Part shown: one piece after another, positions 9,338 to 54,502 of the stretch
Layout: each line of letters begins with the position of its first letter
Numbering within the stretch: the first letter of the stretch is position 1
Source: Synergistaceae bacterium
Lineage (GTDB): Bacteria > Synergistota > Synergistia > Synergistales > Synergistaceae
Direction of reading: 5' to 3'
NCBI GenBank assembly: GCA_031289775.1
Contig: JAITOY010000002.1
Coordinates: 28,337-92,336 of the forward strand
Length of the DNA stretch: 64,000 nucleotides
Position numbers and translations under genes: made by a program
Notes under the pieces: generated by a model
Told to the model about the DNA's origin: nothing
The model's input: the letters and a program-made list of their open reading frames with translations, nothing else
Database searches by the model: none

Positions 9338-9347
9338 ATTAAAGGCC

Positions 9348-12373: not shown

Positions 12374-12568
12374 CCCCTTGTACGCTCATCCAATAATGCG
12401 GGCCGGTATCCCCGCCTATATTTCCTCAGATACCATATCCCATGGGTCAGAGCCGCGGGAGGCGGCAAAATTTACTGGTATACGCGGTTGATCGACGAAA
12501 TTTTGAAGCCTGCCGAGGCGTTTGGCCTGGGGATAATGGACGTTGAAACTACTGGCGACGCGCTGTCT

Positions 12569-13243: not shown

Positions 13244-13417
13244 AAAATGCCCTCCCAATTTTTAGTGATTGTCAATATAATTTTTCCAAGCGTCGAATTC
13301 ATTCTAGTTATTATTTTACACTAAATGTGAAAGCTACACTAGGCTGTTTAAGAAGTTGCTGATAAAATGGACTCGATAAAAATTCAGTATTTTATTTTTT
13401 CTCGGGGTGAATTGTGA

Positions 13418-13912
13418 ATGGCGCTGCTTGAGGTTCTTGCTTATCCAAATCCCGTGCTTCGTGTCACAGCGGATAGTGTTACGGTTTTTGACGACAAGCT
13501 CAGAAAATTGATTTCAGATATGTGGGAGACCATGTATTTTTCAAAAGGGGTCGGACTCGCCGCCCCACAGATAGGTCTCTCCATGAGGGTTGTGGTGATT
13601 GACTGGGAGGGAGAGAGGTACGCGCTCGTCAACCCGAGAATAGTCGAAGAGGAAGGGGAGGAGCGCTGTGAGGAGGGATGTCTCAGCTTCCCGGGCATCT
13701 ACGAGGAAATAACGAGGTCGACTAAAATAAAGGTTTTATACCAGGACGAGAACAGTATCGAGCACGACGACGTCATAGAGGGATTTCTCGCGCGCGTGTT
13801 CAGCCACGAGATAGACCACCTGGACGCGAAGCTTTTGATAGACCATCTTTCGCCGCTCAAAAAAACATTCCTGAAAAAAAAGATGGAGAGGAAGGCAAAA
13901 GAGCAGGAATGA
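13418..13912 (+). CDS. def: Peptide deformylase
   Basis: The three PDF motifs are present: GVGLAAPQIG, EGCLSFPG and HEIDHL. Confidence 0.85.
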   Translation: MALLEVLAYPNPVLRVTADSVTVFDDKLRKLISDMWETMYFSKGVGLAAPQIGLSMRVVVIDWEGERYALVNPRIVEEEGEERCEEGCLSFPGIYEEITRSTKIKVLYQDENSIEHDDVIEGFLARVFSHEIDHLDAKLLIDHLSPLKKTFLKKKMERKAKEQE

Positions 13913-14883
13913 GCGGGAATGAGGGTTCGGCTTTCACCGGCTCGTTCGGTTTTTTCGGCGCTGGGAGGTTTGCGGCTCGATGCCTCGAGCTGCTTTTGAA
14001 GTGGCGCCCGCCGTCGTGGATAGTAACGTCGCCTCCAAGTCGCGCCGGGCGTGGCAATGGGCTGTTGCCGACGCCTGTAGAGGTCTTCGCGAGGTTCTCG
14101 CTTCCAGGCATACCGATCGTGAACTCGTCTTTTGTGTCGCGTGACGTTTCGGTGATCGACCTCGCGGAACGATACCAGGCGAGTTTTTGTTTTGTGATAG
14201 ATTTTGGGCAGAGGATAGAGGCGCCGTTTCTCTCGCTAGGGCAGGCCGGGTGCCTCAACATACACCCCTCGCTTTTGCCGCGCTACAGGGGCGCGGCGCC
14301 GGTTCAGCGGGCGTTGATGGATTGCGCCGGGGAGACGGGCGTGACTGTCTTCAGGCTGTCCGAGGGGATGGACGCGGGGCCGGTTTTGCTGCGCGAAACG
14401 ATACAGATAGGCGAGGATGACGACGCGGGGACGCTTCTGGAGCGTGCCGCGCTTGCGGCGACATCGGCGTTTATAAAGCACGCCCAGCGCCTGCCGATTG
14501 GCGTGTGGACGTTCGAGCCGCAGAATGACGCTCTCGCGACAGACGCCCCAAAGATACGCCCCGAGGAGGAGCGTATAGATTGGGGAAAAAGCGCCGAAAA
14601 GATATGCGGCGTCGTTCGCGCCCTCGCCCCGAAGCCAGGCGCGTGGACCACGTCGCGCGGCAGACGTCTTAAAGTGCTGAAGGCAGCGCGCGCGCGCCTG
14701 AGTTCGTTCGGGGAGAGCGCCTCGACGGGCGGGTTGCTTGGGCTGGCCGAGGGCGGCGTTGGCGTCGCCTCTGGAGAGGGGAACGTGATTTTGAAGGAAG
14801 TGCAACTGGATGGCAAAAAAATTCAAGCGGCCGCAGAGTGGTGGAATGGACTCCGCGCAGCCTCAGGGGAGCGTCTTTTATGA
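13909..14883 (+). CDS. fmt: Methionyl-tRNA formyltransferase
   Basis: It has a 4-nt overlap with def (ATGA). The formyltransferase core (…CLNIHPSLLPRYRGAAPVQRAL…) and the C-terminal Fmt domain are present. It sits in the classic def-fmt operon position. Confidence 0.8.
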   Translation: MSGNEGSAFTGSFGFFGAGRFAARCLELLLKWRPPSWIVTSPPSRAGRGNGLLPTPVEVFARFSLPGIPIVNSSFVSRDVSVIDLAERYQASFCFVIDFGQRIEAPFLSLGQAGCLNIHPSLLPRYRGAAPVQRALMDCAGETGVTVFRLSEGMDAGPVLLRETIQIGEDDDAGTLLERAALAATSAFIKHAQRLPIGVWTFEPQNDALATDAPKIRPEEERIDWGKSAEKICGVVRALAPKPGAWTTSRGRRLKVLKAARARLSSFGESASTGGLLGLAEGGVGVASGEGNVILKEVQLDGKKIQAAAEWWNGLRAASGERLL

Positions 14884-15446
14884 CATTTGATATTGGCCGC
14901 AAGGCAGACTTCAGCGAGACTCGCGTGGAGAGCAAAAGCGTATATGACGGAAAAATTCTCAACCTTAGAGTCGACCGTGTGCGCCTGACGGATGGACGGC
15001 TGGTTTCAAGGGAGGTAGTGGAGCACAGACCCGCTGTCGTTATCCTCGCGGAGAACGACGATGAGAGCGTGGCGCTCGTGCGGCAGTACAGGTACGCCGC
15101 CGGCGAGACTCTTTTTGAGCTGCCGGCCGGACTGGCCGAACCTAGCGAGGATATCGCGGAGAGCGCCGTGCGCGAGTTGAGGGAGGAGGTGGGCCTTCGG
15201 CCCTCGCGTGTCGAAAAGGTCGCCGAATTCTATACGTCGCCCGGTTTCACGGACGAGATCATCTCGATGTTTTACGCCACAGGCCTCTCCCCAGACAGGC
15301 TTCCGCTCGACGACGACGAGCTCCTCGTCGCGGGTTTCGCTTCGCGCGGAGAGATCGAGGATTTGCTGCGCGCCGGTTCAATAAAGGATTGCAAGACTCT
15401 GTTCGGCCTCCACTGGTGGCTCAACAAGCTGAACGCGAGGTCGTGA
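14880..15446 (+). CDS. NUDIX hydrolase (ADP-ribose pyrophosphatase-like)
   Basis: The Nudix box is GETLFELPAGLAEPSEDIAESAVRELREEVGL (GX5EX7REUXEEXGU). The start is taken at ATG 14880, overlapping the fmt stop. The ORF-track start is 14838. Confidence 0.65.
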   Translation: MTFDIGRKADFSETRVESKSVYDGKILNLRVDRVRLTDGRLVSREVVEHRPAVVILAENDDESVALVRQYRYAAGETLFELPAGLAEPSEDIAESAVRELREEVGLRPSRVEKVAEFYTSPGFTDEIISMFYATGLSPDRLPLDDDELLVAGFASRGEIEDLLRAGSIKDCKTLFGLHWWLNKLNARS

Positions 15447-15450
15447 TCCC

Positions 15451-16491
15451 GTGAAGGCCCGAGTGGCCGCTCCCTACATGGATGGCGATGTTTGCGAGCT
15501 CATAACAGGTTTTTTGGACTACATGCGCTTTGAGCGGGACGCGAGCCCGCATACTGTCAGCGCCTACAGGAGCGACCTCCTGAACTGGCGCGGTTTTTGC
15601 GCGGAGCAGGGCAAGCCGCATTATCCGGTGGCGCCCGAGATGCTTTCGAGGTACCTGCGGCACATGGAGAAGACGGGCATGGCCTCTGGAACGAGGGCGC
15701 GAAGGGCATCAACTCTCTCCGCATTTTCGAAGTACCTTCTGTACGACGGCAGGGTAGACTCCGTGATTCCGCTCGGGCCTCTGCCAAAACGCGAGAGGTC
15801 GCTGCCGCACGTCATGACGGAGGGCGAGATACAGCGGCTTCTGGAGAGCTGCGAAAACCCGCTCTCACTCGGCATTTCAGGCGCGCTGGGCATCAGGAAG
15901 CGGCGAAACAGGAAAAAAGGGCAAAAAATTTCCGAGATGAAGGCCGTGCTTGGCCTGAGGGATCGGACTATGATCGAGATGGCGTATGACTGCGGGCTTC
16001 GGGCGAGTGAACTCTGTTCGCTCAAGTTGTCCGACATGGACGAGACGGGCGGCGTGATGTACGTCAGGGGCAAGGGGGACAAGGAGAGGATAGTGCCATA
16101 CGTAGGCGCTCTGCGCGGAGTTGTCAGGAGGTATCTCGACGAGTCGCGCCCCGTGCTTTTGCGGCGGGCGGATGACGACGGCAGTTTTCTTTTCCTATCG
16201 TCTCGCGGACGGAGAATGTCGCGGCAGGAATTGTGGAATATTGTTCAAAAAAGGGGGAGGAGCGCTGGAATATCCTCAAAGTCGCGCCTCCATCCTCATG
16301 TATTGAGGCACTCTTTCGCGACGCACCTGCAGCGAAGGGGGATGGACCTGCGTACTTTGCAGGAGTTGCTGGGGCACTCCTCCATAGCGACCACCGAGAA
16401 GTACGTTCATCTTGACACGGATTTGAGGGATCTTTATGACAGTTTTCACCCACGCGCAAGGCATAATCAAGACGCTAAAGGAGGTTACTGA
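15451..16491 (+). CDS. xerD: Tyrosine site-specific recombinase XerD/XerC family
   Basis: GTG start. It has the N-terminal SAM-like core-binding domain (LDYMRFERDASPHTVSAYRSDL) and catalytic residues in order (…R…HVLRHSFATHL…GHSSIATTEKYVHL). There is a ~30-aa basic insertion (GIRKRRNRKKGQKISEMK) ahead of the catalytic domain. Confidence 0.8.
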   Translation: MKARVAAPYMDGDVCELITGFLDYMRFERDASPHTVSAYRSDLLNWRGFCAEQGKPHYPVAPEMLSRYLRHMEKTGMASGTRARRASTLSAFSKYLLYDGRVDSVIPLGPLPKRERSLPHVMTEGEIQRLLESCENPLSLGISGALGIRKRRNRKKGQKISEMKAVLGLRDRTMIEMAYDCGLRASELCSLKLSDMDETGGVMYVRGKGDKERIVPYVGALRGVVRRYLDESRPVLLRRADDDGSFLFLSSRGRRMSRQELWNIVQKRGRSAGISSKSRLHPHVLRHSFATHLQRRGMDLRTLQELLGHSSIATTEKYVHLDTDLRDLYDSFHPRARHNQDAKGGY

Positions 16492-21208: not shown

Positions 21209-21874
21209 ATGACGATCAGCATCGTTATAGCGGACGACCACCCGCTCACGAGATCTGGACTCGCAGAGTGGATAAAAAAGAACGCGAATTTCACGCTAGC
21301 CGCCGAGGTGGAGGACGGGATCTCGGCGTGGGCCGTTATAGAGGCGCAGCGTCCGGATATCGCTCTGCTCGACATCCAGATGCCAGGCGAGAATGGTATA
21401 GCTGTAGCCCAGAGGATAAAGGATCTCGGATTCGCGACAAGGCCGATAATGCTCACATCCTTCAACGCCCAGCCCTACGTGATGGCGTCGCTGCGCGCAG
21501 GGGCGATGGGTTTCGTACTGAAGACGACGGCCGTTCGAGAGCTGGAGGTCGCAATAAAACAGGTCATGAGCGGCGGGTTTTACCTCGATTCGCAGGTAGC
21601 GGGAATACTCGGCGACAGGGGAGTGGTTCCGGAGTCTCTCTCCGTTCGCGAGAGAGAGGTGCTCCTCGTAACGTCGAAGGGCTTCTCCATCAAGGAGATA
21701 GCGGCCAAACTATGCATAACGGAGAGGACGGTTCAGGCGCATCTGACGTCCGTTTACTCGAAGTTCGGGTGCAGGGGCAAGGGCGAAGCGCTGCTCGTGG
21801 CGCTGAAGCACGGCATTATCACTATAGATGAGCTTCTTGAAGGCACGTCTCTCGACGAGGCGCCGGCCCAGTGA
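21209..21874 (+). CDS. Two-component response regulator, NarL/FixJ (LuxR-HTH) family
   Basis: The REC domain has the acidic pocket and phospho-Asp (IVIADDHPL…IALLDIQMPGENG). The C-terminal LuxR HTH is LSVREREVLLVTSKGFSIKEIAAKLCITERTVQAHL. Confidence 0.8.
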   Translation: MTISIVIADDHPLTRSGLAEWIKKNANFTLAAEVEDGISAWAVIEAQRPDIALLDIQMPGENGIAVAQRIKDLGFATRPIMLTSFNAQPYVMASLRAGAMGFVLKTTAVRELEVAIKQVMSGGFYLDSQVAGILGDRGVVPESLSVREREVLLVTSKGFSIKEIAAKLCITERTVQAHLTSVYSKFGCRGKGEALLVALKHGIITIDELLEGTSLDEAPAQ

Positions 21875-23346
21875 TTCGCAGAAAGCTTTTGACTATATTG
21901 TTCATCTGCATCCTTCTGCCGGTCGTAATAACCCTCGTCGAGTCGACGAGGGCGATAATATCGCAAAAAAACGCAATGACCAGCATATCTGGCGCTTACG
22001 TCAGGAATCTCTCCAACTTCGCAGCCGACAGGTGGAACGAGGGCAACGCCGAGCGGATAACCTCCTTTTTGTCGCTCGTTGCCGACAACGGCTACGATAC
22101 ACTTGTGTCCGTCAGGAACACTCCGGAGGCGCCGCCTGGGCCGCTGAGCCTGAACGCCAGGACGATGCGCGAGAAGCTCATCCCTGGTCTTGTCGCCTAT
22201 GTGAGCGGGAGCGGGCGGCTCATATCCTGCTCCCAGAACGCGGCCATACTTCTCAATATTTTCCCTCGCGCCCCGCTTGTTGCGTCAGGGAACAGGTTTT
22301 CGCGGGGAGGCGGCATCATAAGCAAGTTCAGGGTGGGCAAGGAGGATATAACCTACGTCGCGCATGTCACGCCGACAAAGGATCCGAGTGTCTACGCGGT
22401 CGCTGCAGTTACGATGCTGAGCTGGATGGGGCGCAACGACTTCAACCTCATCAGACTCGCTACGGCGGGAACGCTCTCGATGATAATGTGCCTCCTCGGA
22501 CTGCTGCTTCTGCGACGGTCAGTCATTATTCCTCTTCAGGCTCTTTCGGCGCAGGTGGAGACACTAGAATGGGGCAGACAGTCGCCGCCTGACGAGGGCA
22601 AAGCCAGGACCGCGATGCAGGTGGAGGAGATATCCTCGCTTAAAAAGGCAATATTCGACCTTGCCTTGAGGATGATAGAGAAGGGGGAGCTGGAGAAACG
22701 ATATATGCGCGACATCATGAAGGCCCAAGAGCATGAGCGCGGAAGAATCGCGCAGGATATTCACGACGGCCCCATACAAGTTGCCTCCGCTCTGATACAG
22801 AGGATACAGATGGCTAATTTAGGGGCAGGCGACATGGAGGACGAAACGCGTCGGCAACTCGTCACGGCAGAGAGCGTGGCACAGGATCTCGTGAAGGATC
22901 TCCGCGACGTCTGCGACTCGCTCGTGCCTCCCTGGGTGTCGCTGGGCATCGTCTCGTGCATGGAGGAGTCGGCGAGCCGTTTTGAGCGGCTGTACTCCAT
23001 TGAGATAAACCTGAACATCGACCAGTCTATAGACATTCCTCTGGAGCAGACGCTGGCGTTCTTCAGGGTTTTTCAGGAGGCTGTCTCGAACGCCGTCCGT
23101 CACGGCGGTGCGACAGAGGTGGAAATGGAACTGCTCCGGCGTGAAGACGGGGATGGCGTGATATTTCAGGTGAGCGACAACGGCAGAGGTTTTGACCTTT
23201 TTGACCTTGTCGGGAGGATGGAGGCGCTTCGTCTCGAGGGGAAAAGGGGTCTGAACGGAATGAGGCAGCGTGCGGAGCTGCTCGGGGGTAAGTTTGGGCT
23301 CGTCTCAAGCACGGGGAAAGGAACTTCGATTACCATAACAATCTGA
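21871..23346 (+). CDS. Sensor histidine kinase, NarX/LiaS-type (HisKA_3 plus HATPase_c)
   Basis: It has a 4-nt overlap with the response regulator gene. Two TM segments flank a periplasmic region. The H-box is HERGRIAQDIHDG. The ATPase N, G1 and G2 boxes are …AVRHGGAT…VSDNGRGF…GLNGMRQRAELLGG. Confidence 0.75.
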   Translation: MIRRKLLTILFICILLPVVITLVESTRAIISQKNAMTSISGAYVRNLSNFAADRWNEGNAERITSFLSLVADNGYDTLVSVRNTPEAPPGPLSLNARTMREKLIPGLVAYVSGSGRLISCSQNAAILLNIFPRAPLVASGNRFSRGGGIISKFRVGKEDITYVAHVTPTKDPSVYAVAAVTMLSWMGRNDFNLIRLATAGTLSMIMCLLGLLLLRRSVIIPLQALSAQVETLEWGRQSPPDEGKARTAMQVEEISSLKKAIFDLALRMIEKGELEKRYMRDIMKAQEHERGRIAQDIHDGPIQVASALIQRIQMANLGAGDMEDETRRQLVTAESVAQDLVKDLRDVCDSLVPPWVSLGIVSCMEESASRFERLYSIEINLNIDQSIDIPLEQTLAFFRVFQEAVSNAVRHGGATEVEMELLRREDGDGVIFQVSDNGRGFDLFDLVGRMEALRLEGKRGLNGMRQRAELLGGKFGLVSSTGKGTSITITI

Positions 23347-41290: not shown

Positions 41291-41956
41291 ATGAAACCTA
41301 TTCATTTGTTAATAGTCGAATCAGATCCGCTAGTCCTATTCTCCATCAGCCAGGTAATCAGGTATTTTGACAATTATCTGGTGGTGGATAAAGTGGACAA
41401 CGCCGAAGATGCCCTCGAGAGAATGAGGGTCGTGCCTGTAGACCTCATTATATTGGGGGGGCAGGAGAACATTGGCAAGTGGCACATTTTTGTCGAGTCT
41501 GGGCTCAAAACCAAGCTCCTGATGCTGGTGACAAATCCAGCGAAGGAGATGGTTCAGGACGCGATATCCTATGGGGTATGGGATATGGTCATCAGGCCCA
41601 TATCCACGGAGAGGCTGAGGTTCTCCCTCGAAATGTTCAGGTATCGCCATATATACGGCGAGTCGCTTGAGTATCCGGTACAGCAGGAGAGGCTCGACTC
41701 TATATTTTTCCCGCGCGAGCGTCATCAGCACATCATCGCTGGAACGATAAAAAACAGCGAGATGCTTGAAAAAGTCCTGCAGCTTATCGAAAACGGCGAC
41801 GAACCGCAGTCGGCGGGCGAGATAGCCGGCGTACTGAGCGTGTCGAGGATAACAGTCCGCAAATACTGCGAGGCACTCGTAAACACTGGCAAACTCCACG
41901 TGAAGAACAAATACCAGGCGAAGGGACGGCCGATAAAACAGTACTATATGGCCTGA
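41291..41956 (+). CDS. CitB/DcuR-family response regulator (REC plus C-terminal HTH) with no cognate kinase nearby
   Basis: The REC-like N-terminus is LLIVESDPL…VDLIILGG. The C-terminal …ISRITVRKYCEALVNTGKLHV…KGRPIKQYY matches the DcuR/CitB HTH tail. Confidence 0.55.
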   Translation: MKPIHLLIVESDPLVLFSISQVIRYFDNYLVVDKVDNAEDALERMRVVPVDLIILGGQENIGKWHIFVESGLKTKLLMLVTNPAKEMVQDAISYGVWDMVIRPISTERLRFSLEMFRYRHIYGESLEYPVQQERLDSIFFPRERHQHIIAGTIKNSEMLEKVLQLIENGDEPQSAGEIAGVLSVSRITVRKYCEALVNTGKLHVKNKYQAKGRPIKQYYMA

Positions 41957-41960
41957 TCGG

Positions 41961-43205
41961 TTACGCAAGGCCAGTCGCAAGCAGAAGCCTCTCAATCGAG
42001 ACAGAGCCGCCCCATTCGCCGGGATATTCGTGCGACCCGTCACGGTCTCGGAACGACAGACGCCGTTCCGAGACGTGAGCGGCGCCTGTTCTTATCTCAC
42101 CGGATTCTCGAAAGCTCGCCGATTCGAAAGCCCCTCCACAGGGGCAGGGAGTTCCGGGGGCGCAGGCGGCTATGTCGGCCATGGGAGGGTCGAAGTCCCT
42201 TCCGTGACAGCAGCCGGTTCTGTGGAAGCCGGGACGGTTGGCGCCGGCCACGATGTTTTTGGCGCCGGCCACGCTGTTGTCGCACACGGCGATCACATTA
42301 TCTGGAAGGCCAACGGGGCCGCAGTAACCGGCAACATCCCCGACAAGCTCGTAAAGCTCCGGTTTCTCGGCGATCCTGAGGCCGCCTAGTCCAAAAGTCG
42401 CATTCAAGTAACGCGCCAGTTTGTTCATGCTGACGTTGAAGTCGCCCCTGACAAAGGAGGCAACAGCGCGTCGCGCCGATGGCTTCCCGGCCTCGGGTTT
42501 TTCCATGGCAACGTACAGCATCGCCTTCACTGTGCGCTCAACTCGTATATCCAATAGCGAACAGAGCGCGGCGATAGTGTTCGCGCCAGGCGTTTCGATA
42601 TCGCTCATACTCTCCTCCGGCTCTTTCACGCCCGGCTGGCGTACGGGAAAGTCAATCGGCGAGTCCGGCAGGAGCAATTTACCGCAGGCCGTGCAGACAA
42701 AACCTAGCCTCGCGTCGATTGTGCCTGGGCCAGACTGACAAAGCAGCGAAAAAAAACGGCTGTCCTCAGAGCGGATCTCCTCGACGAAATTGAAGTTCAC
42801 GCGACTTTCGCGAAGCACAGAGATTATTGCGGACATAGCCAACTCGGCAGCGCTAAACGCGAGATATTCATCCTCTCGCCAGCCCAAAAGCCGGAGCTCC
42901 CTGTGCCTTGTGTCGCAATACGAGAGAGCCTGATCCTTCCACTCCCTCACGTACCTCTCCGCAAGCGAGAAGATCGCTTCGTCGCTTCCGCAGTCGACCG
43001 ATTGCAGCCCGCTATCTTGAAAAAGCGCGCGTTCGATATTTTCGCAAAGCGCGCGAGCCGCGGCGAGGCCGGTTGGCAGAAGCAGAAGCTCGCCGGATTT
43101 AGCGTTGTAAGCGGCCGCTCCGGCCTTGACGAGGGCTATTACGCCGTCGTCCTTCTGCTTCGCCGGCGCGTTTTGCGTCGCCGGTTTGAATATCTCTCGT
43201 TTCAT
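41961..43205 (-). CDS. Prolyl-tRNA-synthetase-like paralog: class II catalytic core with degenerate motifs and an INS editing domain, but no anticodon-binding domain
   Basis: It follows bacterial ProRS from the N-terminus (…ALVKAGAAAYNAKSGELLLLPTGLAAARALCENIERAL… versus L.RAG.i.....GlY.wLPtG.rv..kv.n.ire). The INS domain follows (DIETPGANTIAALCSLLDIRVERTVKAMLYV…FVRGD…AGANRPG). It terminates right after a motif-3-like segment (GEWGGSVSIERLLLATGLA). The motif 2 and 3 consensus residues are degenerate. There is a 4-nt start/stop overlap with hisC. Confidence 0.5.
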   Translation of the reverse strand: MKREIFKPATQNAPAKQKDDGVIALVKAGAAAYNAKSGELLLLPTGLAAARALCENIERALFQDSGLQSVDCGSDEAIFSLAERYVREWKDQALSYCDTRHRELRLLGWREDEYLAFSAAELAMSAIISVLRESRVNFNFVEEIRSEDSRFFSLLCQSGPGTIDARLGFVCTACGKLLLPDSPIDFPVRQPGVKEPEESMSDIETPGANTIAALCSLLDIRVERTVKAMLYVAMEKPEAGKPSARRAVASFVRGDFNVSMNKLARYLNATFGLGGLRIAEKPELYELVGDVAGYCGPVGLPDNVIAVCDNSVAGAKNIVAGANRPGFHRTGCCHGRDFDPPMADIAACAPGTPCPCGGAFESASFRESGEIRTGAAHVSERRLSFRDRDGSHEYPGEWGGSVSIERLLLATGLA

Positions 43206-44368
43206 TTCCCAAATATTCCCGCAGAGATTATCTCCTTCAACGCCGCGATAAGTTTCTCGTTCTCCTCCGTCGTCCCTATCGAAAACCTCAGCCCGCTGGG
43301 AGCTTTATCATGCTTGAGGGCGCGGACAAGTATTCCGCGTTTGGCAAGTTCATTCGCTGCTTTTACGTGCTCCTCGTAAGGTTTGTCGTAAAACGCGAAA
43401 ACAAAGTTCGCCTTAGATGGGACGTACGTTATGCCGGAGTCCTTGAGGAAGTCCTCAAGGCGCTCCCTGCCGGCGATTATTATCCCGCGCGCGTTATCCT
43501 TGAACAGTTTAACGGACTCGTCCGTGAGGTCGATCAGCGCAGATTCCTGCGCGATGGAGTTCACTGTGTACGGCGGCCTTACCCTGTAGATGTACGAGAG
43601 CATGCTCGGCCGCGCTATGATATAACCAGCCCGAAGGCCGGCAAGGCCGGAGAGTTTCGAGAACGTCCGTAAAACCGCGAGATTCGTGAAACCATTCATG
43701 TATTTTATCGCGTTTACGGAGTCGCCAGCCGGTCTGTCGAAGTCGACGTAAGCGTGGTCGACTAACAGAATAGGCTGTGCCGGCATGTGCGCTAGTTTTT
43801 CGAGGAACGAGTCGAACTCGTTCCTCTTTATCGTAGTCCCCGTCGGGTTGTTCGGGCTGCACAGAAAAATTATCTTTGTATTGCTTTTTATAGCGTCGGC
43901 TGTCGCGTCGAGGTCAATGGACATGTCGGGCCTCATCGGTATTATTATAGGCGACGCGCCCATCATCCGGGAGGCGTTCGTATACGCCGAAAATGTGGCG
44001 GCCGGTATTATGACGCTGTCGTTTGGGCTCAAAAACGAGAGAGCGATCATGTTTATCACGTCGTCGAGCCCGTTTCCCAGAAGGAACCAGTCCGGCGGGA
44101 AGCGGTATTTTTCGGACAAGGCCTCTCGTATTCTTGTGCAGGTGATGTCCGGGTATCTGTGCAGCCTCGCGTCCCCCATCATGCGGGATTTGAGCGCTTC
44201 GATCACGGCGGGTGGCGCACCGAATCCATTTTCGTTCGCCGATATTCGCACAGTTTCAGCGTCCTCGTGAACCATTCCAGGGGAGTATGGTTCCAGCGCG
44301 AGTATATGCGACCTCGCTAACCTCTTGAAATAGAAGTCCGTAGTATCCCTCTTGGCGTTTTTTTTCAT
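43202..44368 (-). CDS. hisC: Histidinol-phosphate aminotransferase (class II aminotransferase)
   Basis: …ISANENGFGAPP…NPNNPTG (SPNNPTGT)…TFSKLSGLAGLRAGY… carries the HisC-type PLP lysine motif. The start is taken at ATG 44368, overlapping the HAD stop (ATGA). The ORF-track start is 44398. Confidence 0.7.
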   Translation of the reverse strand: MKKNAKRDTTDFYFKRLARSHILALEPYSPGMVHEDAETVRISANENGFGAPPAVIEALKSRMMGDARLHRYPDITCTRIREALSEKYRFPPDWFLLGNGLDDVINMIALSFLSPNDSVIIPAATFSAYTNASRMMGASPIIIPMRPDMSIDLDATADAIKSNTKIIFLCSPNNPTGTTIKRNEFDSFLEKLAHMPAQPILLVDHAYVDFDRPAGDSVNAIKYMNGFTNLAVLRTFSKLSGLAGLRAGYIIARPSMLSYIYRVRPPYTVNSIAQESALIDLTDESVKLFKDNARGIIIAGRERLEDFLKDSGITYVPSKANFVFAFYDKPYEEHVKAANELAKRGILVRALKHDKAPSGLRFSIGTTEENEKLIAALKEIISAGIFGK

Positions 44369-45225
44369 GACTTTTCTCTCCTCCATCCGAGAATACAAAA
44401 AAGCGCATCCTCAACGTTCGCGAAGTTAGGCTTGTCGTCTCGCAGTATATCCCCAATGGCCACAAAATGTCCCTTTCCGAAGGCCTCCCACGCTTTCCTG
44501 TCGCTCGCGGTGTCGCCAAAAAACATTGGCCGCTCGTGACCAAAAGCGTCGCACAGCGAAAAAAGACCTCGCGGGGACGGCTTGCGGATGCCGCTGTCGA
44601 AACCGATGACTCGTTCGTCGGGGAAGTCCTCCCATGAGAGTATCTCCTTGGCGAGGCCCCATTCGGCGCCGTTGCGCCCCGTGTATATGTAGGCAGGAAG
44701 CGGAAGAGATCTCCAGTGGGAGCGGAGAAGCGGCGTCTCTATAGCGTACATTCCCTTTTGTTCCTCCAGGCCGAAGTACGTTCTAACGCACATCTCACGA
44801 ACATGTTCGCGTCCGAACCTCTCGGGGAAAGCCGACCGCATCCACTCTACGCAGTCGCCGGCGCAGCGCGAGATAATGTCCCCCAACTCCTCGGGTGACA
44901 GCGGGAATTCGGGCGATCTTTTGCCGTTTTCGCCGCGTCGGTTCGTCCCGGATCGAAACGCCATTATGTTGAGAAGAGACCACGCTATGTCATAGTCGTC
45001 GTTAAAAGAGCCGTGGCGTTTGAAGACATAGTTCAGTTCCGCCGAGTAGCCTGGCGATTCCGCGACAAAACCAGCGCCGTGCCATAAATCCTCAACGACA
45101 GCCCGAATCATCTCCGGGAATGATTTATCGGCCTCGATAAGGACGCCGTCAACGTCGAAGATCAGGCAATCCGGCGAAAAATCGCTGTCATTCCCAAACT
45201 CGACGCCGCCAGGGGGAAAAACCAT
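44365..45225 (-). CDS. HAD-superfamily hydrolase, a candidate histidinol-phosphatase
   Basis: HAD motif I is CLIFDVDGVLIE. A second Asp-containing motif is FFGDTASDRKAWEAFG. It lies immediately upstream of hisC on the same strand. Confidence 0.6.
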   Translation of the reverse strand: MVFPPGGVEFGNDSDFSPDCLIFDVDGVLIEADKSFPEMIRAVVEDLWHGAGFVAESPGYSAELNYVFKRHGSFNDDYDIAWSLLNIMAFRSGTNRRGENGKRSPEFPLSPEELGDIISRCAGDCVEWMRSAFPERFGREHVREMCVRTYFGLEEQKGMYAIETPLLRSHWRSLPLPAYIYTGRNGAEWGLAKEILSWEDFPDERVIGFDSGIRKPSPRGLFSLCDAFGHERPMFFGDTASDRKAWEAFGKGHFVAIGDILRDDKPNFANVEDALFCILGWRREKS

Positions 45226-45315
45226 TTTACCACCTCCATGTCACAAATCGGGATTCATGATATCATCAAAAAGAAGCGCTTGCGACATATTTTTTTCGAA
45301 GGGAGCCTCAGACTT

Positions 45316-46515
45316 ATGAACATTACCCCGCGCGGGTGCGTCAGCATAGGCGGGGAGCTTGCGCATGGTATGGAGGAGTGCCGCGCCAGGACGCTCGGGC
45401 TTTTTACGTCCTACGGGTACAACCCCTTTAATCCTGCGGAGTTCCAGCTTATCGAGGGCACGATGAAAAACCTCCACCGACGGAGGAGCGGGCGTATCAT
45501 CGCCGTCAACAGTCCTTTTGGCGAGCCCTGCTGCCTGAGGGCGGATATAACGCTGTCCGCGTTATCATACATGGCGCTTCACCACGCTCCGGAGGAGTTC
45601 CCGCTCCGGCTCTGTTACGCGGAGCGCGTTTTTGCGTCCCCGAAGGCGCCGAAAGAAAATCTGGAGGACACGCAGGTGGGGGTCGAACTTCTTGGCTGGG
45701 AGGGTCTCGGCGCGGACGTCGAAGTAATCACGCTTCTGTTGCGCGCCCTCGACTCCCTCGGGCTGAGCGGCTCCGTCGTCGTTCTCGGCGACGCGTCCAT
45801 CGCCCCCGCGCTTTTCTCAGGCCTGCCGGGAAATCTCGCGGACGTTCTCGTCGACTATCTCCAGGAGGGCGCATACTACGACTTCGAGCGGACTCTGGCA
45901 AGCGCGGACGCGCTCTCCGATCATGACAAAAAAATCCTGAGCGAGCTTCCGTCGCTCAAGGGAACGATAGACGTGCTGGATTACGCGGAGGATCTGTTTG
46001 GGGCGCGACGCCTCATGAAACCGCTCAGCGAAATTTGCGGCGCGCTCGGCAGGCTCGGCCTCGGAAGCAGGGTCAGGATAGACCTTGGGTTCATCAGGGA
46101 TCTTGGCTACTACAATGGCCCAATGTTCAACGTCTATTCGTCTCCGGACGGCGTCCTGCTCGGCGGCGGCGGCAGGTACGACGGGTCGCTCGCGGACACG
46201 CGTTTTTATTGTCAGGCCGTCGGTTTCGGTGTCAGCCTGCGCGAGCTCGCCCTCGCGCGCAAACCAACCGCAAGGGCGGAGCGACTCATGATATGGTCGG
46301 GCGGAGCATATCCAGACCGCGCTCTTTCTTACGCGTCGTTGCTCGCGGACAGAGGCGTCTCCTTTGAAATTAGCTGGAACCCGGATATGGAGGCATCGAA
46401 AAAATTTGCCCTCTTGCGCGGATGCAGTTGGTGGGTGGACGTAGAGTCGGACGTCGCGCACGAGCTGCCGTCGGGCAGGCGTCTTGCGGCGCGAGAGATA
46501 CGGGGGACTGCGTAA
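45316..46515 (+). CDS. hisZ: ATP phosphoribosyltransferase regulatory subunit (HisRS-like paralog)
   Basis: It has a class II aaRS-like core without an anticodon-binding domain (…LRADITLSALSYMAL…GGGGRYDGSL…). It precedes a short-form hisG. The start is taken at ATG 45316. Confidence 0.7.
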   Translation: MNITPRGCVSIGGELAHGMEECRARTLGLFTSYGYNPFNPAEFQLIEGTMKNLHRRRSGRIIAVNSPFGEPCCLRADITLSALSYMALHHAPEEFPLRLCYAERVFASPKAPKENLEDTQVGVELLGWEGLGADVEVITLLLRALDSLGLSGSVVVLGDASIAPALFSGLPGNLADVLVDYLQEGAYYDFERTLASADALSDHDKKILSELPSLKGTIDVLDYAEDLFGARRLMKPLSEICGALGRLGLGSRVRIDLGFIRDLGYYNGPMFNVYSSPDGVLLGGGGRYDGSLADTRFYCQAVGFGVSLRELALARKPTARAERLMIWSGGAYPDRALSYASLLADRGVSFEISWNPDMEASKKFALLRGCSWWVDVESDVAHELPSGRRLAAREIRGTA

Positions 46516-47165
46516 TGCCCATAATGGCCCTTCCCACAGGACGTTCGCTGGACTCCTGTATAGAGGTAATAGAGGGCGCCGGCCTTCCTTCGAAAAACCT
46601 GAGGAGCGTCGGACGAAATCTTGTTGTGGACGAGGGGGGTTACAGATACCTCCTCGGGAAACCGTCGGACATACCGACGCTCGTTTCGCAGGGGCTGGCG
46701 GAGCTCGCGCTTGTCGGCAACGACGTGACCGACGAGTCGGAAGTCGAGTTGACCGAACTGCTCGACACTGGCAGGGGTCGCTGTTTCATGGCGATAGCCG
46801 GTCCTCCGGAGCTTACGCTTCGCTTTGACGGACACGCCAGCAGCCTCATGGGACTCAGAGTCGCGAGCAAGTACCAGCACAGCGCGCGCCGCACGTTCGA
46901 GTCGTGGGGCGTCCAGGTGAAGATACTCCACCTGAACGGCTCCGTCGAGCTCGCCCCGGCACTCGGTTTCGCGGACTGCATCTTCGACATCGTCCAGACT
47001 GGTGGAACGCTAAAGGCGAACGGGCTCGCCGTCATAAAACGCGCGCAGGACGTCTCGCTGCGTCTCGTTGCTAATCCAGGGATCCTTCAGCTCCGCTGGG
47101 AGACGCTTCGCGGCACGGTGGAAGCCATGAAAAAATTTGTAAACGCGCGACAAACGGAGGTCTGA
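46515..47165 (+). CDS. hisG: ATP phosphoribosyltransferase, short form
   Basis: MPIMALPTGRSLDSCIEVIEGAG… matches the short HisG fold and lacks the C-terminal regulatory domain. The start overlaps the hisZ stop (TAATG). Confidence 0.8.
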   Translation: MPIMALPTGRSLDSCIEVIEGAGLPSKNLRSVGRNLVVDEGGYRYLLGKPSDIPTLVSQGLAELALVGNDVTDESEVELTELLDTGRGRCFMAIAGPPELTLRFDGHASSLMGLRVASKYQHSARRTFESWGVQVKILHLNGSVELAPALGFADCIFDIVQTGGTLKANGLAVIKRAQDVSLRLVANPGILQLRWETLRGTVEAMKKFVNARQTEV

Positions 47166-47170
47166 GTCGT

Positions 47171-47749
47171 ATGTATACTGTCAACAGGAACACGAGGGAG
47201 ACCAAAGTGGCCCTTTCCGTCTCGCATCCCGCTCCCTCGGGGAGCAGCCATGTTAGCGTGGGCTGCGGTTTTTTGGCCCACATGCTTGAACTTATGGCTC
47301 ACCGCGCGAAACTTTGCCTGGAAGTCGAGGCTTCCGGCGATGCGCACGTCGACGCTCACCACATCACAGAGGACGTGGGCATCGTTTTCGGCATGGCGCT
47401 CAAGAAGATGCTCTCCTCGACAGAGTCGCCGCGCAGCAGGTACGGCTGGTGCCTCTTGCCGATGGACGGCTCGCTCGCCCGAGTCGCGCTCGACCTGAGC
47501 GGCAGAGGGGGGCTTTATTGGGAGGGAAACTTCCCGACGCACAGGTGCGGCGACTTCGACCTCGAACTCGTCCCGGAGTTCTTCCGCGCGTTCTGCCGTG
47601 AGTCGTGCTCGACGCTGCACATAGCCCTGATAACCGCCGACAACTCGCACCACGCTGCGGAGGCCGTCTTCAAGGGCTTTGGGATAGCGCTCGACATGGG
47701 GCTCGCGCCCTCACAAATCGATCCAAGCACAAAGGGGGAGTGGATATGA
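47171..47749 (+). CDS. hisB: Imidazoleglycerol-phosphate dehydratase (monofunctional)
   Basis: The IGPD motifs are RNTRETKV, HMLELMAHRA, DAHHITEDVGIVFG and HHAAEAVFKGFG. Confidence 0.85.
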   Translation: MYTVNRNTRETKVALSVSHPAPSGSSHVSVGCGFLAHMLELMAHRAKLCLEVEASGDAHVDAHHITEDVGIVFGMALKKMLSSTESPRSRYGWCLLPMDGSLARVALDLSGRGGLYWEGNFPTHRCGDFDLELVPEFFRAFCRESCSTLHIALITADNSHHAAEAVFKGFGIALDMGLAPSQIDPSTKGEWI

Positions 47750-48462
47750 TAGTCCTCCCCGCCATAGACCTCTACGACGGGAAAGTCGTGCGCCTCAGCA
47801 AAGGAGATTTTTCCAAAAAAACGGAGTATGGCACGGACGCCCTGGAGGCAGCGCGCGCTTATGCCGGGCTCGGCTGTACAAACCTCCACGTCGTCGACTT
47901 GGAGGGGGCAGAGTCAGGCTCGCCGAAACACTTGCGCGTCCTTCGGAAAATAGTGAACCTGGGGCTCGAAATAGAGTACGGCGGCGGCCTCCGGGAGCGA
48001 AGCGCGATACGAGACGTCCTGTCGGCCGGTGCGGCGCGCGCCATACTCGGCAGCCTTCTATTTAAATCGGAGGACGCGGCCGGCGCAATATTCGAGGAGT
48101 TCGGGAACTCCGTCCTGCCGGCGATAGACGTGCGAGACGGCAAAGTAGCGGTCTTTGGCTGGGCGGAGAGCACGGGCTATGCGCCAGAGTCATGCCTCGA
48201 CCGTCTGTCCGCTGTAGGTTTCAAAAGGTTCCTGGTGACTTCCGCGGACAGGGACGGCATGCTAGCTGGCCCCGACATGGAGCTTATAGGAAGTCTTATC
48301 CGCGCCCCCCTGGAGATAATCGCGGCGGGCGGCGTCACGACGTTGGACGACATAAAAAAACTCAAGGCTGCCGGCGCTTTCGGCGCCGTCGTGGGCAAGG
48401 CTCTATACGAAAGCGGTTTTGACCTCGCGGCCGCTCTCGAAATAGCGGAGGATGCCCGATGA
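47746..48462 (+). CDS. hisA: 1-(5-phosphoribosyl)-5-[(5-phosphoribosylamino)methylideneamino]imidazole-4-carboxamide isomerase
   Basis: MIVLPAIDLYDGKVVRL… plus the C-terminal GG…GAFGAVVGKALYE. It has a 4-nt overlap with hisB. Confidence 0.8.
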   Translation: MIVLPAIDLYDGKVVRLSKGDFSKKTEYGTDALEAARAYAGLGCTNLHVVDLEGAESGSPKHLRVLRKIVNLGLEIEYGGGLRERSAIRDVLSAGAARAILGSLLFKSEDAAGAIFEEFGNSVLPAIDVRDGKVAVFGWAESTGYAPESCLDRLSAVGFKRFLVTSADRDGMLAGPDMELIGSLIRAPLEIIAAGGVTTLDDIKKLKAAGAFGAVVGKALYESGFDLAAALEIAEDAR

Positions 48463-49103
48463 TGGACGTTTCACCGGATTTTTCGGAGGCGATAAAAAAA
48501 ACAAAGTTCGACCGTGACGGCCTGGTGACGGTTGTAGTCCAGGATTCCGACACTGCCGAGGTTCTCATGGTCGCGTGGGCGAACGAGGAGGCGCTGCGCC
48601 TCACTGCGGAGCGCGGCGAGATGGTCTTCTGGAGTCGTTCGCGCAACGAGATATGGCACAAGGGCCTCACAAGCGGCAACAGGCTGAAGGTTCGCGAGAT
48701 CAGGCTTGACTGCGACGGGGACGCCCTGCTGGCCTTGGTCGAACCCACAGGCCCCGCCTGCCACACCGGCGAGAGGAGCTGTTTTTTCAAGAGAGTCCTC
48801 GAGGTTGGCGACTCGGACGCTGGGACATTCCTCGGCAAACTCTTCAGATATCTAGAGACACGCTCAAAGGATTCCCCGGAGGAGAGCTACACGGCACGGC
48901 TTCTTGGCATGGGTATGTCGAGGGTCGCCCAGAAAGTGGGGGAGGAGGGCGTAGAGACGGCGCTGGCCGTAGCGACAGGCGACGCCGCAGGCTTCCGCTA
49001 CGAAGCCGCCGACCTGCTCTACCACCTGCAAGTAGCCTGCATCGCAGCCGGCGTCCCATTCGCCGATATTCTGAAGGAGCTGAAGTCGCGGCATAAGGCG
49101 TAA
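48459..49103 (+). CDS. hisI: Bifunctional phosphoribosyl-AMP cyclohydrolase / phosphoribosyl-ATP pyrophosphatase
   Basis: The HisI part is GLVTVVVQD…VWANEEAL…WSRSRNEIWHKG…CDGDALL. The HisE part is a MazG-like helical C-terminus (…YLETRSKDSPEESYTARLL…EAADLLYHLQV). Confidence 0.8.
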   Translation: MMDVSPDFSEAIKKTKFDRDGLVTVVVQDSDTAEVLMVAWANEEALRLTAERGEMVFWSRSRNEIWHKGLTSGNRLKVREIRLDCDGDALLALVEPTGPACHTGERSCFFKRVLEVGDSDAGTFLGKLFRYLETRSKDSPEESYTARLLGMGMSRVAQKVGEEGVETALAVATGDAAGFRYEAADLLYHLQVACIAAGVPFADILKELKSRHKA

Positions 49104-51829: not shown

Positions 51830-54502
51830 ATGCGTTCAATAAAATGGAGGAGCTCGAAGGAGCTTCGCGAGCTGTTTTTATCATACTTCGAGGGACATGG
51901 ATGCAGGCGATACCCGAGCTTTCCGCTCGTCCCGGATGATCCTACGCTTCTTTTCACGGTCGCCGGCATGGTTCCTTTCAAGCCTTATTTTCTCGGGTTG
52001 AGGACGCCCGAGGTAACGCGAGCGACCACGTCGCAGAAGTGCATTCGCACGAACGACATTGACAACGTCGGGCACACCGCGAGGCACCATACGTTTTTCG
52101 AGATGCTAGGGAACTTCAGCTTCGGCGACTACTTCAAAAAAGAGATAATCCCCTGGGCGTGGGAATTTATCACAAGCCAGATCGGGCTCGACCCTGGTCG
52201 CCTGTACGCGACGATATACCTCGACGACGACGAGGCGCGCGATTTCTGGCGCGACCTTGTCGGTCTGCCTGAGGACAGGATAATTCGCCTCGGCGAGGAC
52301 GACAACTTCTGGGCGGCCGGCCCGACGGGGCCTTGCGGCCCATGCTCCGAGATATTGTACGATCAAGGGCCGTCGTATTCCTGCGGCAAGCCCGGCTGCG
52401 GCGTCGGGTGCGGTTGCGACAGGTACCTCGAGATATGGAACCTCGTTTTTATGCAGTACTCGCGCGACGAGGCCGGCGTTCTCTCGCCGCTGCCGAAAAA
52501 AAATATCGATACCGGCATGGGCCTCGAACGCCTGGCGAGCATCGTGCAGGGCGTGAGGGGAGACTTCGAGACCGACCTGTTCAAGCCTATAATGGACAAG
52601 GCCTGTTCCGTGGCCGGCGTAAAATATGGCGACTCGCCGAAATATGACCTCGCGATGCGGGTCATCTCCGACCACTTGAGGGCGTCGGCCTTTATGATCG
52701 CGGACGGGATTCTCCCGTCGAACGAGGGCCCAGGCTACGTCCTGCGCAGACTGATCAGGCGCGGAGTCCGTTATGGGCGTCTCACCGGCGTCGACCGCCC
52801 GTTCCTGCTCGAGCTGCTGCCGGCGGTAAACGAAATAATGAGCGACCCATACGGCGAGCTGATCGAATATTCGTCCACGATAAAACAGGTGCTCGAGCTG
52901 GAGGAGTCCAGATTCGGCAAAACCCTTGCGCAGGGCATGGAGCTTTTGGAGAACGAGCTCGGAAAGTTAGCTCGCGAAGCGGGCAGAAGCAGCCTCCCGG
53001 GCGAGCTCGCCTTCACCCTGTACGACACGTTCGGTTTTCCGCTGGAACTGACGGAGGAGATAGCGTCGGAGGCCGGCGTCGACGTCGACAAAAACGGCTT
53101 CGACGTCGAGATGGAGCGGCAGAGGGATCGCGCCCGCGCGTCGAGCAAGCAGAGCGCCGCGGTCATATCGGCAAATGTTTACACAAGGCTCGCGGACAGG
53201 CTGGGCCCGACGAGGTTCGACGGCTACGAGACGACGAGCGGCAGCGCCGTCGTGTCTGCAATAGTGTCGGATGAGCGCGTGGTGGAGTCGATAACCGCGG
53301 GCGAGTCCGCGACGGTTTTTCTGTCGAACACGCCCTTTTACGCGGAGCGCGGAGGTCAGGTGGGGGACAAGGGAGTTTTGGGGATTTTCGGCGGCGACCC
53401 CGCGAAGGACGTGCGCTTCGAGGTGGATGACGCGGTATACTCGAGCGGCGAGACGATAGGGCACTCAGGCAGGCTCGCGGCGGGCGAGATTCGCCTCGGC
53501 ATGACCCTCGACGCGCTGGTCGACGAGGATAGGCGCAACGCGATCAGGCAGCATCACACGGCGACACACTTGCTGCACGAGGCGCTCTCCCGGGTGCTCG
53601 GCAGCCACGTTCGCCAGGCCGGCTCTCTAGTCACGCCGGCATTCCTGAGGTTCGACTTCAACCACTTCGCGCCTCTTTCGACGGACGAGATTCGCGACGT
53701 GGAACGCTTGGTTTACGAGCAGGTGCTGCGAGCCATCCCTGTGACAACGAGCGTCATGAACTATGACGAGTCGAGGAAAAGCGGCGTGAAGGCACTGTTC
53801 GAGGAAAAATACGGCGACGTCGTCCGTGTTCTGGATATCCCGGGTTTTTCGACGGAACTTTGCGGCGGTACGCACGTCGGCAACACAGGTGAAATAGGCG
53901 TCGTCAAGATCATAAGGGACGAGGGCATAGGATCCGGCATCAGGCGCATAAACGCCGTCGCCGGCTTGATATCGCTGCGCCTTTTGCAGGAAGCGCTTTA
54001 CACGATGAGGCAGCTCTCTGAGCTTTTGGGCGGCGACGTAGACTCGCTCGCGTCGAAGGCAGAGGATCTGTTGGAGGAGAAGAAGGTTCTCGAGCGAAGG
54101 AACAGAGAGCTTCTTCTGCGCGGCGCGTCGGAGGACATAGAAGCCCGCCTGAGAAGGGCCGTAAGGATAGGGGATCTCGCGCTCGTCGTCGATAAATTCG
54201 ACGGCATCCCGAGGGACATGCTGCGACAGATCGGCGACAGGATAAAGCAGGTCGAGCAGAACTCGGTCGCGCTGCTGGCGGGCTTGGAGGACGGCGCCGT
54301 ATCCCTCGTCGGGATGGCCTCGGATAACGCGGTGAAAAAAGGAGTTCACGCCGGCAACCTCGTGAAGGAGGTCTCGGCGATTATTGGCGGAAGCGGGGGA
54401 GGCAAGCCGGCCACAGGCCAGGGCGGCGGCAAGGACGCGGCCAAGCTGAAAGAGGCCCTCGACGCGGCGGAGGATATAGTGAGGGCTCAACTGTCGAAAT
54501 AA
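51830..54502 (+). CDS. alaS: Alanyl-tRNA synthetase
   Basis: The class II AlaRS N-terminus is FLSYFEGHGCRRYPSFPLVP…FTVAGM. The editing-domain HxxxH/CxxxH Zn motif is HTATHLLHEA…CGGTH. The C-terminal DHHA1-like domain ends in GGGKP. Confidence 0.9.
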   Translation: MRSIKWRSSKELRELFLSYFEGHGCRRYPSFPLVPDDPTLLFTVAGMVPFKPYFLGLRTPEVTRATTSQKCIRTNDIDNVGHTARHHTFFEMLGNFSFGDYFKKEIIPWAWEFITSQIGLDPGRLYATIYLDDDEARDFWRDLVGLPEDRIIRLGEDDNFWAAGPTGPCGPCSEILYDQGPSYSCGKPGCGVGCGCDRYLEIWNLVFMQYSRDEAGVLSPLPKKNIDTGMGLERLASIVQGVRGDFETDLFKPIMDKACSVAGVKYGDSPKYDLAMRVISDHLRASAFMIADGILPSNEGPGYVLRRLIRRGVRYGRLTGVDRPFLLELLPAVNEIMSDPYGELIEYSSTIKQVLELEESRFGKTLAQGMELLENELGKLAREAGRSSLPGELAFTLYDTFGFPLELTEEIASEAGVDVDKNGFDVEMERQRDRARASSKQSAAVISANVYTRLADRLGPTRFDGYETTSGSAVVSAIVSDERVVESITAGESATVFLSNTPFYAERGGQVGDKGVLGIFGGDPAKDVRFEVDDAVYSSGETIGHSGRLAAGEIRLGMTLDALVDEDRRNAIRQHHTATHLLHEALSRVLGSHVRQAGSLVTPAFLRFDFNHFAPLSTDEIRDVERLVYEQVLRAIPVTTSVMNYDESRKSGVKALFEEKYGDVVRVLDIPGFSTELCGGTHVGNTGEIGVVKIIRDEGIGSGIRRINAVAGLISLRLLQEALYTMRQLSELLGGDVDSLASKAEDLLEEKKVLERRNRELLLRGASEDIEARLRRAVRIGDLALVVDKFDGIPRDMLRQIGDRIKQVEQNSVALLAGLEDGAVSLVGMASDNAVKKGVHAGNLVKEVSAIIGGSGGGKPATGQGGGKDAAKLKEALDAAEDIVRAQLSK

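Follow-up and report, generated by a model that had tools for sequence, protein, structure and literature searches.

The DNA analyzed here is a window of 64 kb (64,000 nucleotides) from a Synergistaceae bacterium (assembly GCA_031289775.1, contig JAITOY010000002.1), in which a gene lying next to hisC encodes a 414-residue paralogue of prolyl-tRNA synthetase (ProRS). A preliminary description of the locus had taken the protein for a truncated, degenerate ProRS and likened it to HisZ. Our analysis indicates that the paralogue is very probably a non-aminoacylating relic of ProRS that has been maintained for its editing domain, INS. The gene and its neighbours are arranged as follows.

41961..43205, minus strand: ProRS-derived paralogue in its short form, a dead class II core with the INS domain and without an anticodon-binding domain, 414 amino acids (aa)
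43202..44398, minus strand: hisC, histidinol-phosphate aminotransferase (TIGR01141, 279.8 bits against a cut-off of 276.55)
44365..45225, minus strand: HAD-family hydrolase, first gene of the HAD-hisC-paralogue operon (PF00702, with a weak TIGR01548 match)
41291..41956, plus strand: convergent response regulator, DcuR/CitB-like, bounding the 3' end of the paralogue gene and not counted in the system
45238..46515, plus strand: hisZ, the true HisZ of the locus, 2 kb from the paralogue and recognized as such in the preliminary description

The ATG of the paralogue overlaps the stop codon of hisC by 4 nucleotides (nt; GGG AAA TGA / ATG AAA, i.e. ATGA, GGGAAATGAAACGA), and hisC itself shares 34 nt with the HAD hydrolase gene on its upstream side. 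The ATGA junction had been pointed out earlier and can be read directly in the sequence; the co-expression with HAD and hisC deduced from it is plausible from the overlapping coding regions. In the window genome, co-transcription and translational coupling of the paralogue with hisC are thus likely, as far as gene arrangement can tell. The remaining his genes, hisZ, hisG, hisB, hisA and hisIE, run divergently from position 45238. Scans for tRNA genes, promoters and terminators gave nothing relevant.

At its other end, the paralogue stops only 4 nt from the stop codon of the convergent response-regulator gene, which leaves no room for a frameshifted C-terminal fragment. The protein itself ends about 8 aa past the motif-3 helix, where the linker to an anticodon-binding domain would begin, and PF03129 (HGTP_anticodon) has no match in it. 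Nine tblastn queries for the anticodon-binding domain gave no credible match anywhere in the window; with full-length bacterial-type ProRS as the query only the ORF (open reading frame) itself was matched in the window, and with archaeal-type ProRS nothing was. The absence of the anticodon-binding domain, noted from the outset, therefore holds for the protein and for the whole window. A frameshifted proS, of which the preliminary description had warned, was ruled out: no anticodon-domain fragment exists in any frame of the window, downstream of the gene or elsewhere, and the stop abuts the convergent gene. Another candidate for a ProRS in the window, a 491-aa ORF at 21871..23346, is a histidine kinase.

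As regards the convergent response regulator (41291-41956), no cognate kinase gene lies adjacent to it, and in relatives that carry it at the same position it is 76-83% identical, versus 50-56% for the paralogue in the same genomes.

Homology to ProRS and the state of the synthetic site

The preliminary description had aligned the protein with bacterial ProRS from the N-terminus via INS to a motif-3 segment, and the comparison of profiles confirmed this. With hhalign, the paralogue family matched 28 canonical bacterial-type ProRS over aa 1-393 with a probability of 99.96 and an E-value of 3.5e-39. The core homology is recognizable only by such profile-profile comparison and by structure, because the other searches saw the INS region alone. 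The sole Pfam match was tRNA_edit (PF04073), spanning aa 205-328 with an E-value of 8.5e-14 and 52.1 bits against a cut-off of 25.5. Among the domain models proposed for checking the boundaries, the INS/YbaK model was thus found and HGTP_anticodon was absent as expected, while tRNA-synt_2b did not detect the catalytic domain. The NCBIfam equivalog models of proS scored far under their cut-offs (NF006625, 80.2 bits versus 558; TIGR00409, 35.9 versus 306.7). Matches in the protein data bank (PDB) by phmmer and hmmsearch, namely 2j3l, 5ucm and 5znj, were confined to aa 185-370, the INS domain matching best the INS of ProRS (2j3l, E 2e-24).

The AlphaFold2 model of the paralogue has a predicted local distance difference test (pLDDT) score of 93.8 and a predicted template modelling (pTM) score of 0.90. 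Foldseek aligned it with ProRS structures at template modelling (TM) scores of 0.63-0.70. The model shows the antiparallel-beta core fold of class II, and INS interrupts it between the positions of motifs 2 and 3. Judged from profile alignment and predicted structure, the paralogue is ProRS-derived over its full length.

We aligned 81 sequences with MAFFT: 23 short forms like the window protein (about 410 aa), 18 long forms (487-533 aa), 12 further degenerate proteins of 503-535 aa, referred to as "other", and 28 canonical ProRS (about 550-655 aa). The segments of the window protein are listed below; all lie on the minus strand.

42636..43205: N-terminal segment plus the first half of the relic class II core, aa 1-190, holding the strongly conserved PPAKVKDxGV...AAYNAKSGELLLLP
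42900..42905: motif-2 deletion junction, aa 101/102, at which FRDExRPRxGxxRxREF, about 20 aa, is missing in the MAFFT alignment
42684..42695: C171-x-x-C174, first half of a four-Cys cluster, invariant in 46 family members
42186..42605: INS (YbaK-like) editing domain, aa 201-340, PF04073
42525-42527, 42315-42329 and 42222-42224: the INS functional residues K227, the G293-P297 loop and H328, respectively
42138..42146: C354-x-C356, second half of the four-Cys cluster, invariant and aligned with CPxCGG of canonical ProRS
41964..42185: second half of the relic core, aa 341-414, ending with the motif-3-equivalent strand and helix, GEWGGSVSIERLLLATGLA

Motif 2 (KFRDExRPRFGxxRxREF), including both class II arginines, is invariant in 28/28 canonical ProRS and is a gap in 23/23 short and 18/18 long forms. 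Likewise, about 30 aa are deleted after motif 1, a segment which contains the Thr of the proline-binding TxE loop (PTHEE). From the IEVGHxF strand, the Glu and Gly persist in most short forms (E367 and G369 in the window protein), and the His and Phe are replaced (E370 and R372). The motif-3 segment, GEWGGSVSIERL, has lost its glycine signature: G443, Y445, G446 and G448 have become W, G, x and S, so that the canonical G-C-Y-G-I-G reads W-x-G-x-x-S overall. In the column of the motif-3 arginine, the window protein has R406, and Arg is found in only 9/23 family members. The earlier view of motifs 2 and 3 as degenerate was hence right for the lost glycines of motif 3; motif 2 is deleted rather than degenerate, and the TxE loop has gone with it. 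From these alignments, the aminoacylation machinery of the paralogue is gone, and the core is predicted to be incapable of charging tRNA.

The CxxC...CPxCGG pattern of the four-Cys cluster, which flanks the INS insertion, is also the consensus in the sampled canonical bacterial-type ProRS. The cluster was therefore inherited from such an enzyme, and it probably forms a structural metal (Zn) site at the base of INS.

Conservation of the editing site across the family

The editing site has been preserved where the synthetic site was lost. All 17 INS sites that we checked are conserved. Fifteen of them are invariant in canonical ProRS and 100% identical in 23/23 short forms, namely T205, P206, K227, R253-G254-D255, K262, G293, G296-P297, D309, G321-A322-N323 and H328 in the numbering of the window protein. 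The pocket residues I211 and L214 are identical in 23/23 short forms as well and vary in canonical ProRS. The long and "other" groups are near-identical at the INS sites with few single exceptions, in addition to a Ser in place of Gly at the G296 column in 10/12 "other" sequences.

K227 is invariant in 81/81 aligned sequences. We take this residue to be the equivalent of K279 of E. coli ProRS and of K45 of C. crescentus ProXp-ala. Conservation of the Lys within the INS superfamily is strict, and its replacement by Ala drastically lowers deacylation in every family member tested (PMC10164551). By model score, this lysine, the Gly-x-x-Gly-Pro loop, GAN...H and the Ile/Leu pair, the paralogue is recognizable from its sequence as a member of the INS/YbaK superfamily.

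A database search returned 117 matches, of which about 85 are full-length orthologues of 404-431 aa with 44-66% identity. One match is identical to the window protein (LBT31_00565) and the closest orthologue is 66% identical; wherever a name is given, the full-length orthologues are from Synergistaceae metagenome-assembled genomes (MAGs). In a profile search of a library of 1.84 billion proteins, the short form made up about eight clusters at 50% identity. An alignment of 46 family members has 43 invariant columns, and 27 of the 43 fall in aa 201-340, that is, in INS. Given the roughly 85 full-length orthologues and the pLDDT of the model, the paralogue is not a pseudogene.

About thirty other clusters in this library of 1.84 billion representative proteins consist of proteins of 487-535 aa, in which a match over the whole profile is followed by HGTP_anticodon. 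These long forms share the core deletions and the intact INS, with 30-40% identity over the full 414 aa, and were found in Thermovirgaceae, Aminiphilus and other Synergistales. The cultured Aminobacterium sp. MB27-C1 has a long form (WP_213695602.1) that is named only "YbaK/EbsC family protein". The "other" group of 503-535 aa (P0151-P0197, P0087) keeps SYRQLP, INS and the anticodon domain and has neither motif 2 nor motif 3. At least one member of this group is from Chloroflexota (P0411, NOZ26796.1, Chloroflexi bacterium), and dead-core ProRS may thus extend beyond Synergistota or have several origins. No NCBIfam model describes either the paralogue family or the long forms, and annotations vary between "prolyl-tRNA synthetase" (JGI automatic), "YbaK/EbsC family protein" and "hypothetical".

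The long forms are found in gene contexts of their own. In ten Thermovirgaceae/Synergistales loci (L033-L042), a small ORF and dnaK come after the long form and then, mostly and where the contig allows, dnaJ and clpB; an example is L035, with the long form at 7968-9485 and the following genes at 9576-16035. The small ORF belongs in 7/10 of these loci to a conserved 125-aa family (c4) that has no family match. One MAG, AMR_MDS_3021, carries two long-form copies on different contigs (L033, L038). Another long form, P0085 (L003:8718-10256, 512 aa, with dead core, INS and anticodon domain), lies inside a glycine-reductase operon (neighbours 4991-13069), with the GrdX gene on one side and DUF5940/FA_synthesis (GrdC/D-like) genes on the other. 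This placement resembles that of the C. sticklandii ProXp-ala homologue, which lies in the proline-reductase operon.

Gene context and the housekeeping ProRS

We collected 51 loci from contigs of one genome per species and labelled the neighbours by BLAST against the window proteins and by Pfam. The short form is carried by 22 loci from 21 MAGs, and the upstream side is visible in 17 of these. The common backbone consists of AlaRS, AdoHcyase, amidohydrolase, [hisIE-A-B-G-Z / HAD-hisC], the paralogue, the response regulator and an M24 peptidase. The 17 loci differ in what precedes the paralogue.

hisC upstream, usually with the whole block: 9/17 (L009, L011, L012, L015, L018, L019, L020, L025, L026)
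HAD only upstream: 4/17 (L007, L016, L021, L028)
neither, with the paralogue directly after the amidohydrolase gene: 3/17 (L008, L017, L022)
neither, with an unrelated aldolase gene upstream: 1/17 (L014)

Two further metagenome contigs show HAD-hisC-paralogue (L004) and an epimerase gene upstream (L006). Linkage to histidine genes, which the preliminary description had asked to see in other genomes, hence recurs, and it is facultative. The order AdoHcyase-amidohydrolase-[his block]-paralogue is retained in seven of the eight loci that lack hisC, with L007 showing only the amidohydrolase, at its contig end. The his genes thus behave as a variable insert beside a paralogue that is always kept, as expected if its function is independent of histidine biosynthesis. 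The position in the his operon looks like a product of local gene-order history and not of a histidine function.

The most persistent neighbour of the paralogue is the HAD gene, which lies directly upstream in four species that have neither hisC nor the his block there (L007:694-1509, L016:6921-7805, L021:5092-6465, L028:7113-7928). The HAD protein of the window scores 36.8 bits versus 140 with TIGR01548 and matches one hydrolase in the PDB (6iah, E 3e-7). Since hisB is monofunctional here, the HAD protein could supply the histidinol-phosphate phosphatase that is missing, or it could be a partner of the paralogue.

The ProRS that serves the lineage is a separate enzyme. On a 48-kb contig of the Synergistaceae MAG Po218_bin54 (L008), a gene for a 488-aa ProRS lies 3.6 kb from the paralogue, and its product scores 536 bits against a cut-off of 437 with TIGR00408, the archaeal/eukaryal-type (E-type) model. 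E-type ProRS consists of PF00587, PF03129 and PF09180 and has no INS. A search with the L008 protein showed that Thermanaerovibrio velox, Aminobacterium, Synergistes and many Synergistaceae MAGs have this enzyme as their ProRS, with identities of 67-84%. A contig of 118,204 nt is given both for another E-type ProRS and for a short-form protein. The accession of one E-type ProRS, MDR3254352.1, is 309 numbers from that of the window protein, MDR3254043.1; this proximity suggests that the two come from one MAG and that the MAG of the window has the E-type enzyme. Synergistota thus charge tRNAPro with a separate E-type ProRS that lacks INS, and the paralogue is not the organism's only proS. The separate proS for which the preliminary description had suggested looking is therefore there in relatives, on the very contig of the paralogue in L008, and probably, judged by accession, in the MAG of the window.

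Several features of the window stand beside these results. The his locus (45238-49103, plus strand, and 43202-45225, minus strand) has hisZ, hisG, hisB, hisA, hisIE, hisC and HAD and is without hisD, hisH and hisF, hisD having had no separate search; tblastn with hisH and hisF of L001 matched only their paralogue hisA in the window. In L001, hisH-hisF are located past the paralogue, at a distance of about 9 kb. The longest ORFs for hisZ (45238-46515) and hisG (46422-47165), both on the plus strand, overlap by 94 nt, and HisG proteins of relatives align only from about residue 19-32 of the hisG ORF in the window; the true start of hisG is probably further downstream than that of the longest ORF. 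The AlaRS gene (51830-54502, plus strand) is a constant part of the syntenic backbone; in the window, 9 kb separate it from the paralogue, and in genomes without the his block (L008, L017, L021, L022) the distance is only about 3-4 kb.

Proposed editing in trans and its alternatives

ProRS mischarges alanine, and INS hydrolyses the resulting Ala-tRNAPro. Where a bacterial ProRS has no functional INS, the task falls to ProXp-ala, a homologue of INS that acts in trans (PMC10164551, PMC3973320). We consider it rather probable that the paralogue is an editing-only relic of the bacterial (P-type) ProRS that hydrolyses Ala-tRNAPro in trans, a function read from its conserved residues. The relic would supply the proofreading that E-type ProRS lacks, as ProXp-ala does elsewhere. 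The aminoacylated A76 would be guided by K227 into a small hydrophobic pocket formed by I211, L214, H328 and the loop G293-P297. For the dead core, the role would be that of a scaffold, possibly by dimerisation, by binding of the tRNA acceptor arm or by docking on E-type ProRS. The relatives of 500-535 aa would still select tRNAPro via their anticodon-binding domain, and the 414-aa form would select its substrate otherwise, either at the acceptor stem, as ProXp-ala does, or by docking on E-type ProRS in the way YbaK docks on ProRS. The conserved N-terminal segment (PPAKVKDxGV...AAYNAKSGELLLLP) is a speculative candidate for substrate recognition.

The known systems each share a part of this architecture. 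INS of P-type ProRS (E. coli; E. faecalis, 2j3l; P. aeruginosa, 5ucm) has the same place of insertion in the class II core, all INS invariants and the four-Cys cluster, and these enzymes are the best matches in both sequence and structure. However, P-type ProRS is an active synthetase with an anticodon domain, whereas the paralogue is dead and without that domain, so that editing and charging would not be coupled in cis. ProXp-ala, including the proteins of C. sticklandii and C. crescentus, is a free-standing Ala-tRNAPro deacylase made of a single domain of about 150-170 aa, whereas the paralogue has 414 aa and carries INS within a class II core of about 270 aa; its sequence is nearer to ProRS INS than to either ProXp-ala or YbaK. 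YbaK, the Cys-tRNAPro deacylase, belongs to the same superfamily but is single-domain and has a different amino-acid specificity. YbaK has no tRNA specificity of its own and works docked on ProRS (PMC3973320), which would be one possible route for the short form. TIGR00011, the YbaK model, gave weak matches to long-form relatives and none to the window protein. Finally, the long-form dead-core proteins of Synergistota and Chloroflexota have the same core deletions and INS, but unlike the paralogue they keep HGTP_anticodon and are not his-linked.

Several points weigh against editing of Ala-tRNAPro in trans. [quoted passage not shown] Since the short form lacks this domain, an alternative route of tRNA selection would be needed. 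The substrate and the specificity are predicted from conserved residues only, and a ProXp-ala or YbaK in the same genomes would make the relic redundant. The N-terminal segment would seem more conserved than a mere scaffold needs. Furthermore, the HAD gene is kept beside the paralogue in four species without hisC and the his block there, and the two could work as a functional pair, which the editing model would not have foretold. For the MAG of the window, the presence of an E-type ProRS is suggested by proximity of accessions.

An unlikely alternative, though one with some arguments in its favour, is that the paralogue is an INS-superfamily hydrolase of another substrate. This might be another mischarged tRNA, carrying Cys, Ser, Thr or Gly, or tRNAPro with a non-protein amino acid, or else an aminoacyl ester other than that of a tRNA. 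Such an activity could suit an amino-acid-fermenting lifestyle, and one long-form relative lies inside a glycine-reductase operon; the N-terminal segment also contains conserved new features. INS homologues, YbaK, ProXp-ala and others, have diverged to several specificities, and the anticodon-binding domain, known to select tRNAPro for INS, has been lost (PMC3973320). Nevertheless, I211, L214, H328 and the G293-P297 loop form the same pocket as in canonical ProRS INS in all groups, and the best match is ProRS INS (2j3l at E 2e-24), not YbaK, to which the long-form relatives match at 1e-4 to 1e-7 with TIGR00011.

Less probable still is a regulator or subunit of the histidine pathway, in which the dead core, on binding either an amino acid or a partner such as HisC, the HAD phosphatase or HisG/HisZ, would adjust histidine synthesis in the way HisZ adjusts HisG. 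HisZ is likewise a class II synthetase paralogue without aminoacylation in a his locus. The ATGA coupling to hisC inside the overlapping HAD-hisC-paralogue operon would suit such a role, and so would the recurrence of the trio in 9/17 informative loci and in L004, down to 39-40% identity (L004, L026), with HAD adjacent in 4 more species. However, HisZ is derived from HisRS (PF13393) and keeps a histidine-binding core, whereas the paralogue is derived from ProRS, its pocket is deleted, its conserved site is the editing domain and its his linkage is facultative; PF13393 and TIGR00443, the models of the HisRS-derived core, have no match in it. The amino-acid and ATP pocket of the core was deleted, not remodelled, and the strictest conservation lies not on some new surface but in a tRNA-editing pocket that a regulator binding small molecules or proteins would not need. 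Moreover, the paralogue is kept after the amidohydrolase without a his or HAD gene nearby (L008, L017, L022) and in other contexts (L006, L014), and its long-form relatives lie by dnaK-dnaJ-clpB or in the grd operon. With hisC upstream in 9/17 loci, HAD only in 4/17 and neither in 4/17, the HisZ-like role that the preliminary description had raised is unsupported.

That the gene is a functionless, decaying remnant of a displaced proS, open only by chance, appears very improbable. The disappearance of every synthetic-site motif and of the C-terminal domain would agree with it, as would the housekeeping role of E-type ProRS. Against it, dozens of species have intact frames of 404-431 aa that are only 44-66% identical and still share 43 invariant columns and a perfect INS site, and the protein has a compact, confidently predicted fold and forms eight clusters at 50% identity. 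A minimal, still active second ProRS is the most improbable of all: the overall ProRS fold, the JGI label and R406 in the motif-3 Arg column speak for it, against deleted motif 2 and TxE, lost motif-3 glycines, the missing anticodon-binding domain and scores of 80 versus 558 and 36 versus 307 bits on the proS equivalog models.

We found no description of dead-core ProRS proteins in the literature searched, in which coverage of subscription journals is incomplete. The chances are about even that dead-core P-type ProRS constitutes an undescribed class of trans-editing proteins, in which INS was kept after E-type ProRS took over charging, first in a form of 500-535 aa that would still read the anticodon of tRNAPro, known from Synergistota and apparently Chloroflexota, and then in the 414-aa form of gut Synergistaceae, which would recognize its substrate via the relic core or while docked on E-type ProRS. 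It is more speculative that the short form gained a second role together with the adjacent HAD phosphatase.

For annotation, the label "prolyl-tRNA synthetase" would wrongly imply a second ProRS, and no histidine function should be read from the position in the his operon. Two ways of proofreading Ala-tRNAPro are known, by INS within an active ProRS and by the small free-standing ProXp-ala. If the editing relic is real, it would add a third, which in evolution stands between these two, with the charging site dismantled and the editing site preserved. It would also offer a natural experiment on the part of the class II core in editing, on how INS finds tRNAPro without an anticodon domain, and on the displacement of one synthetase type by another.

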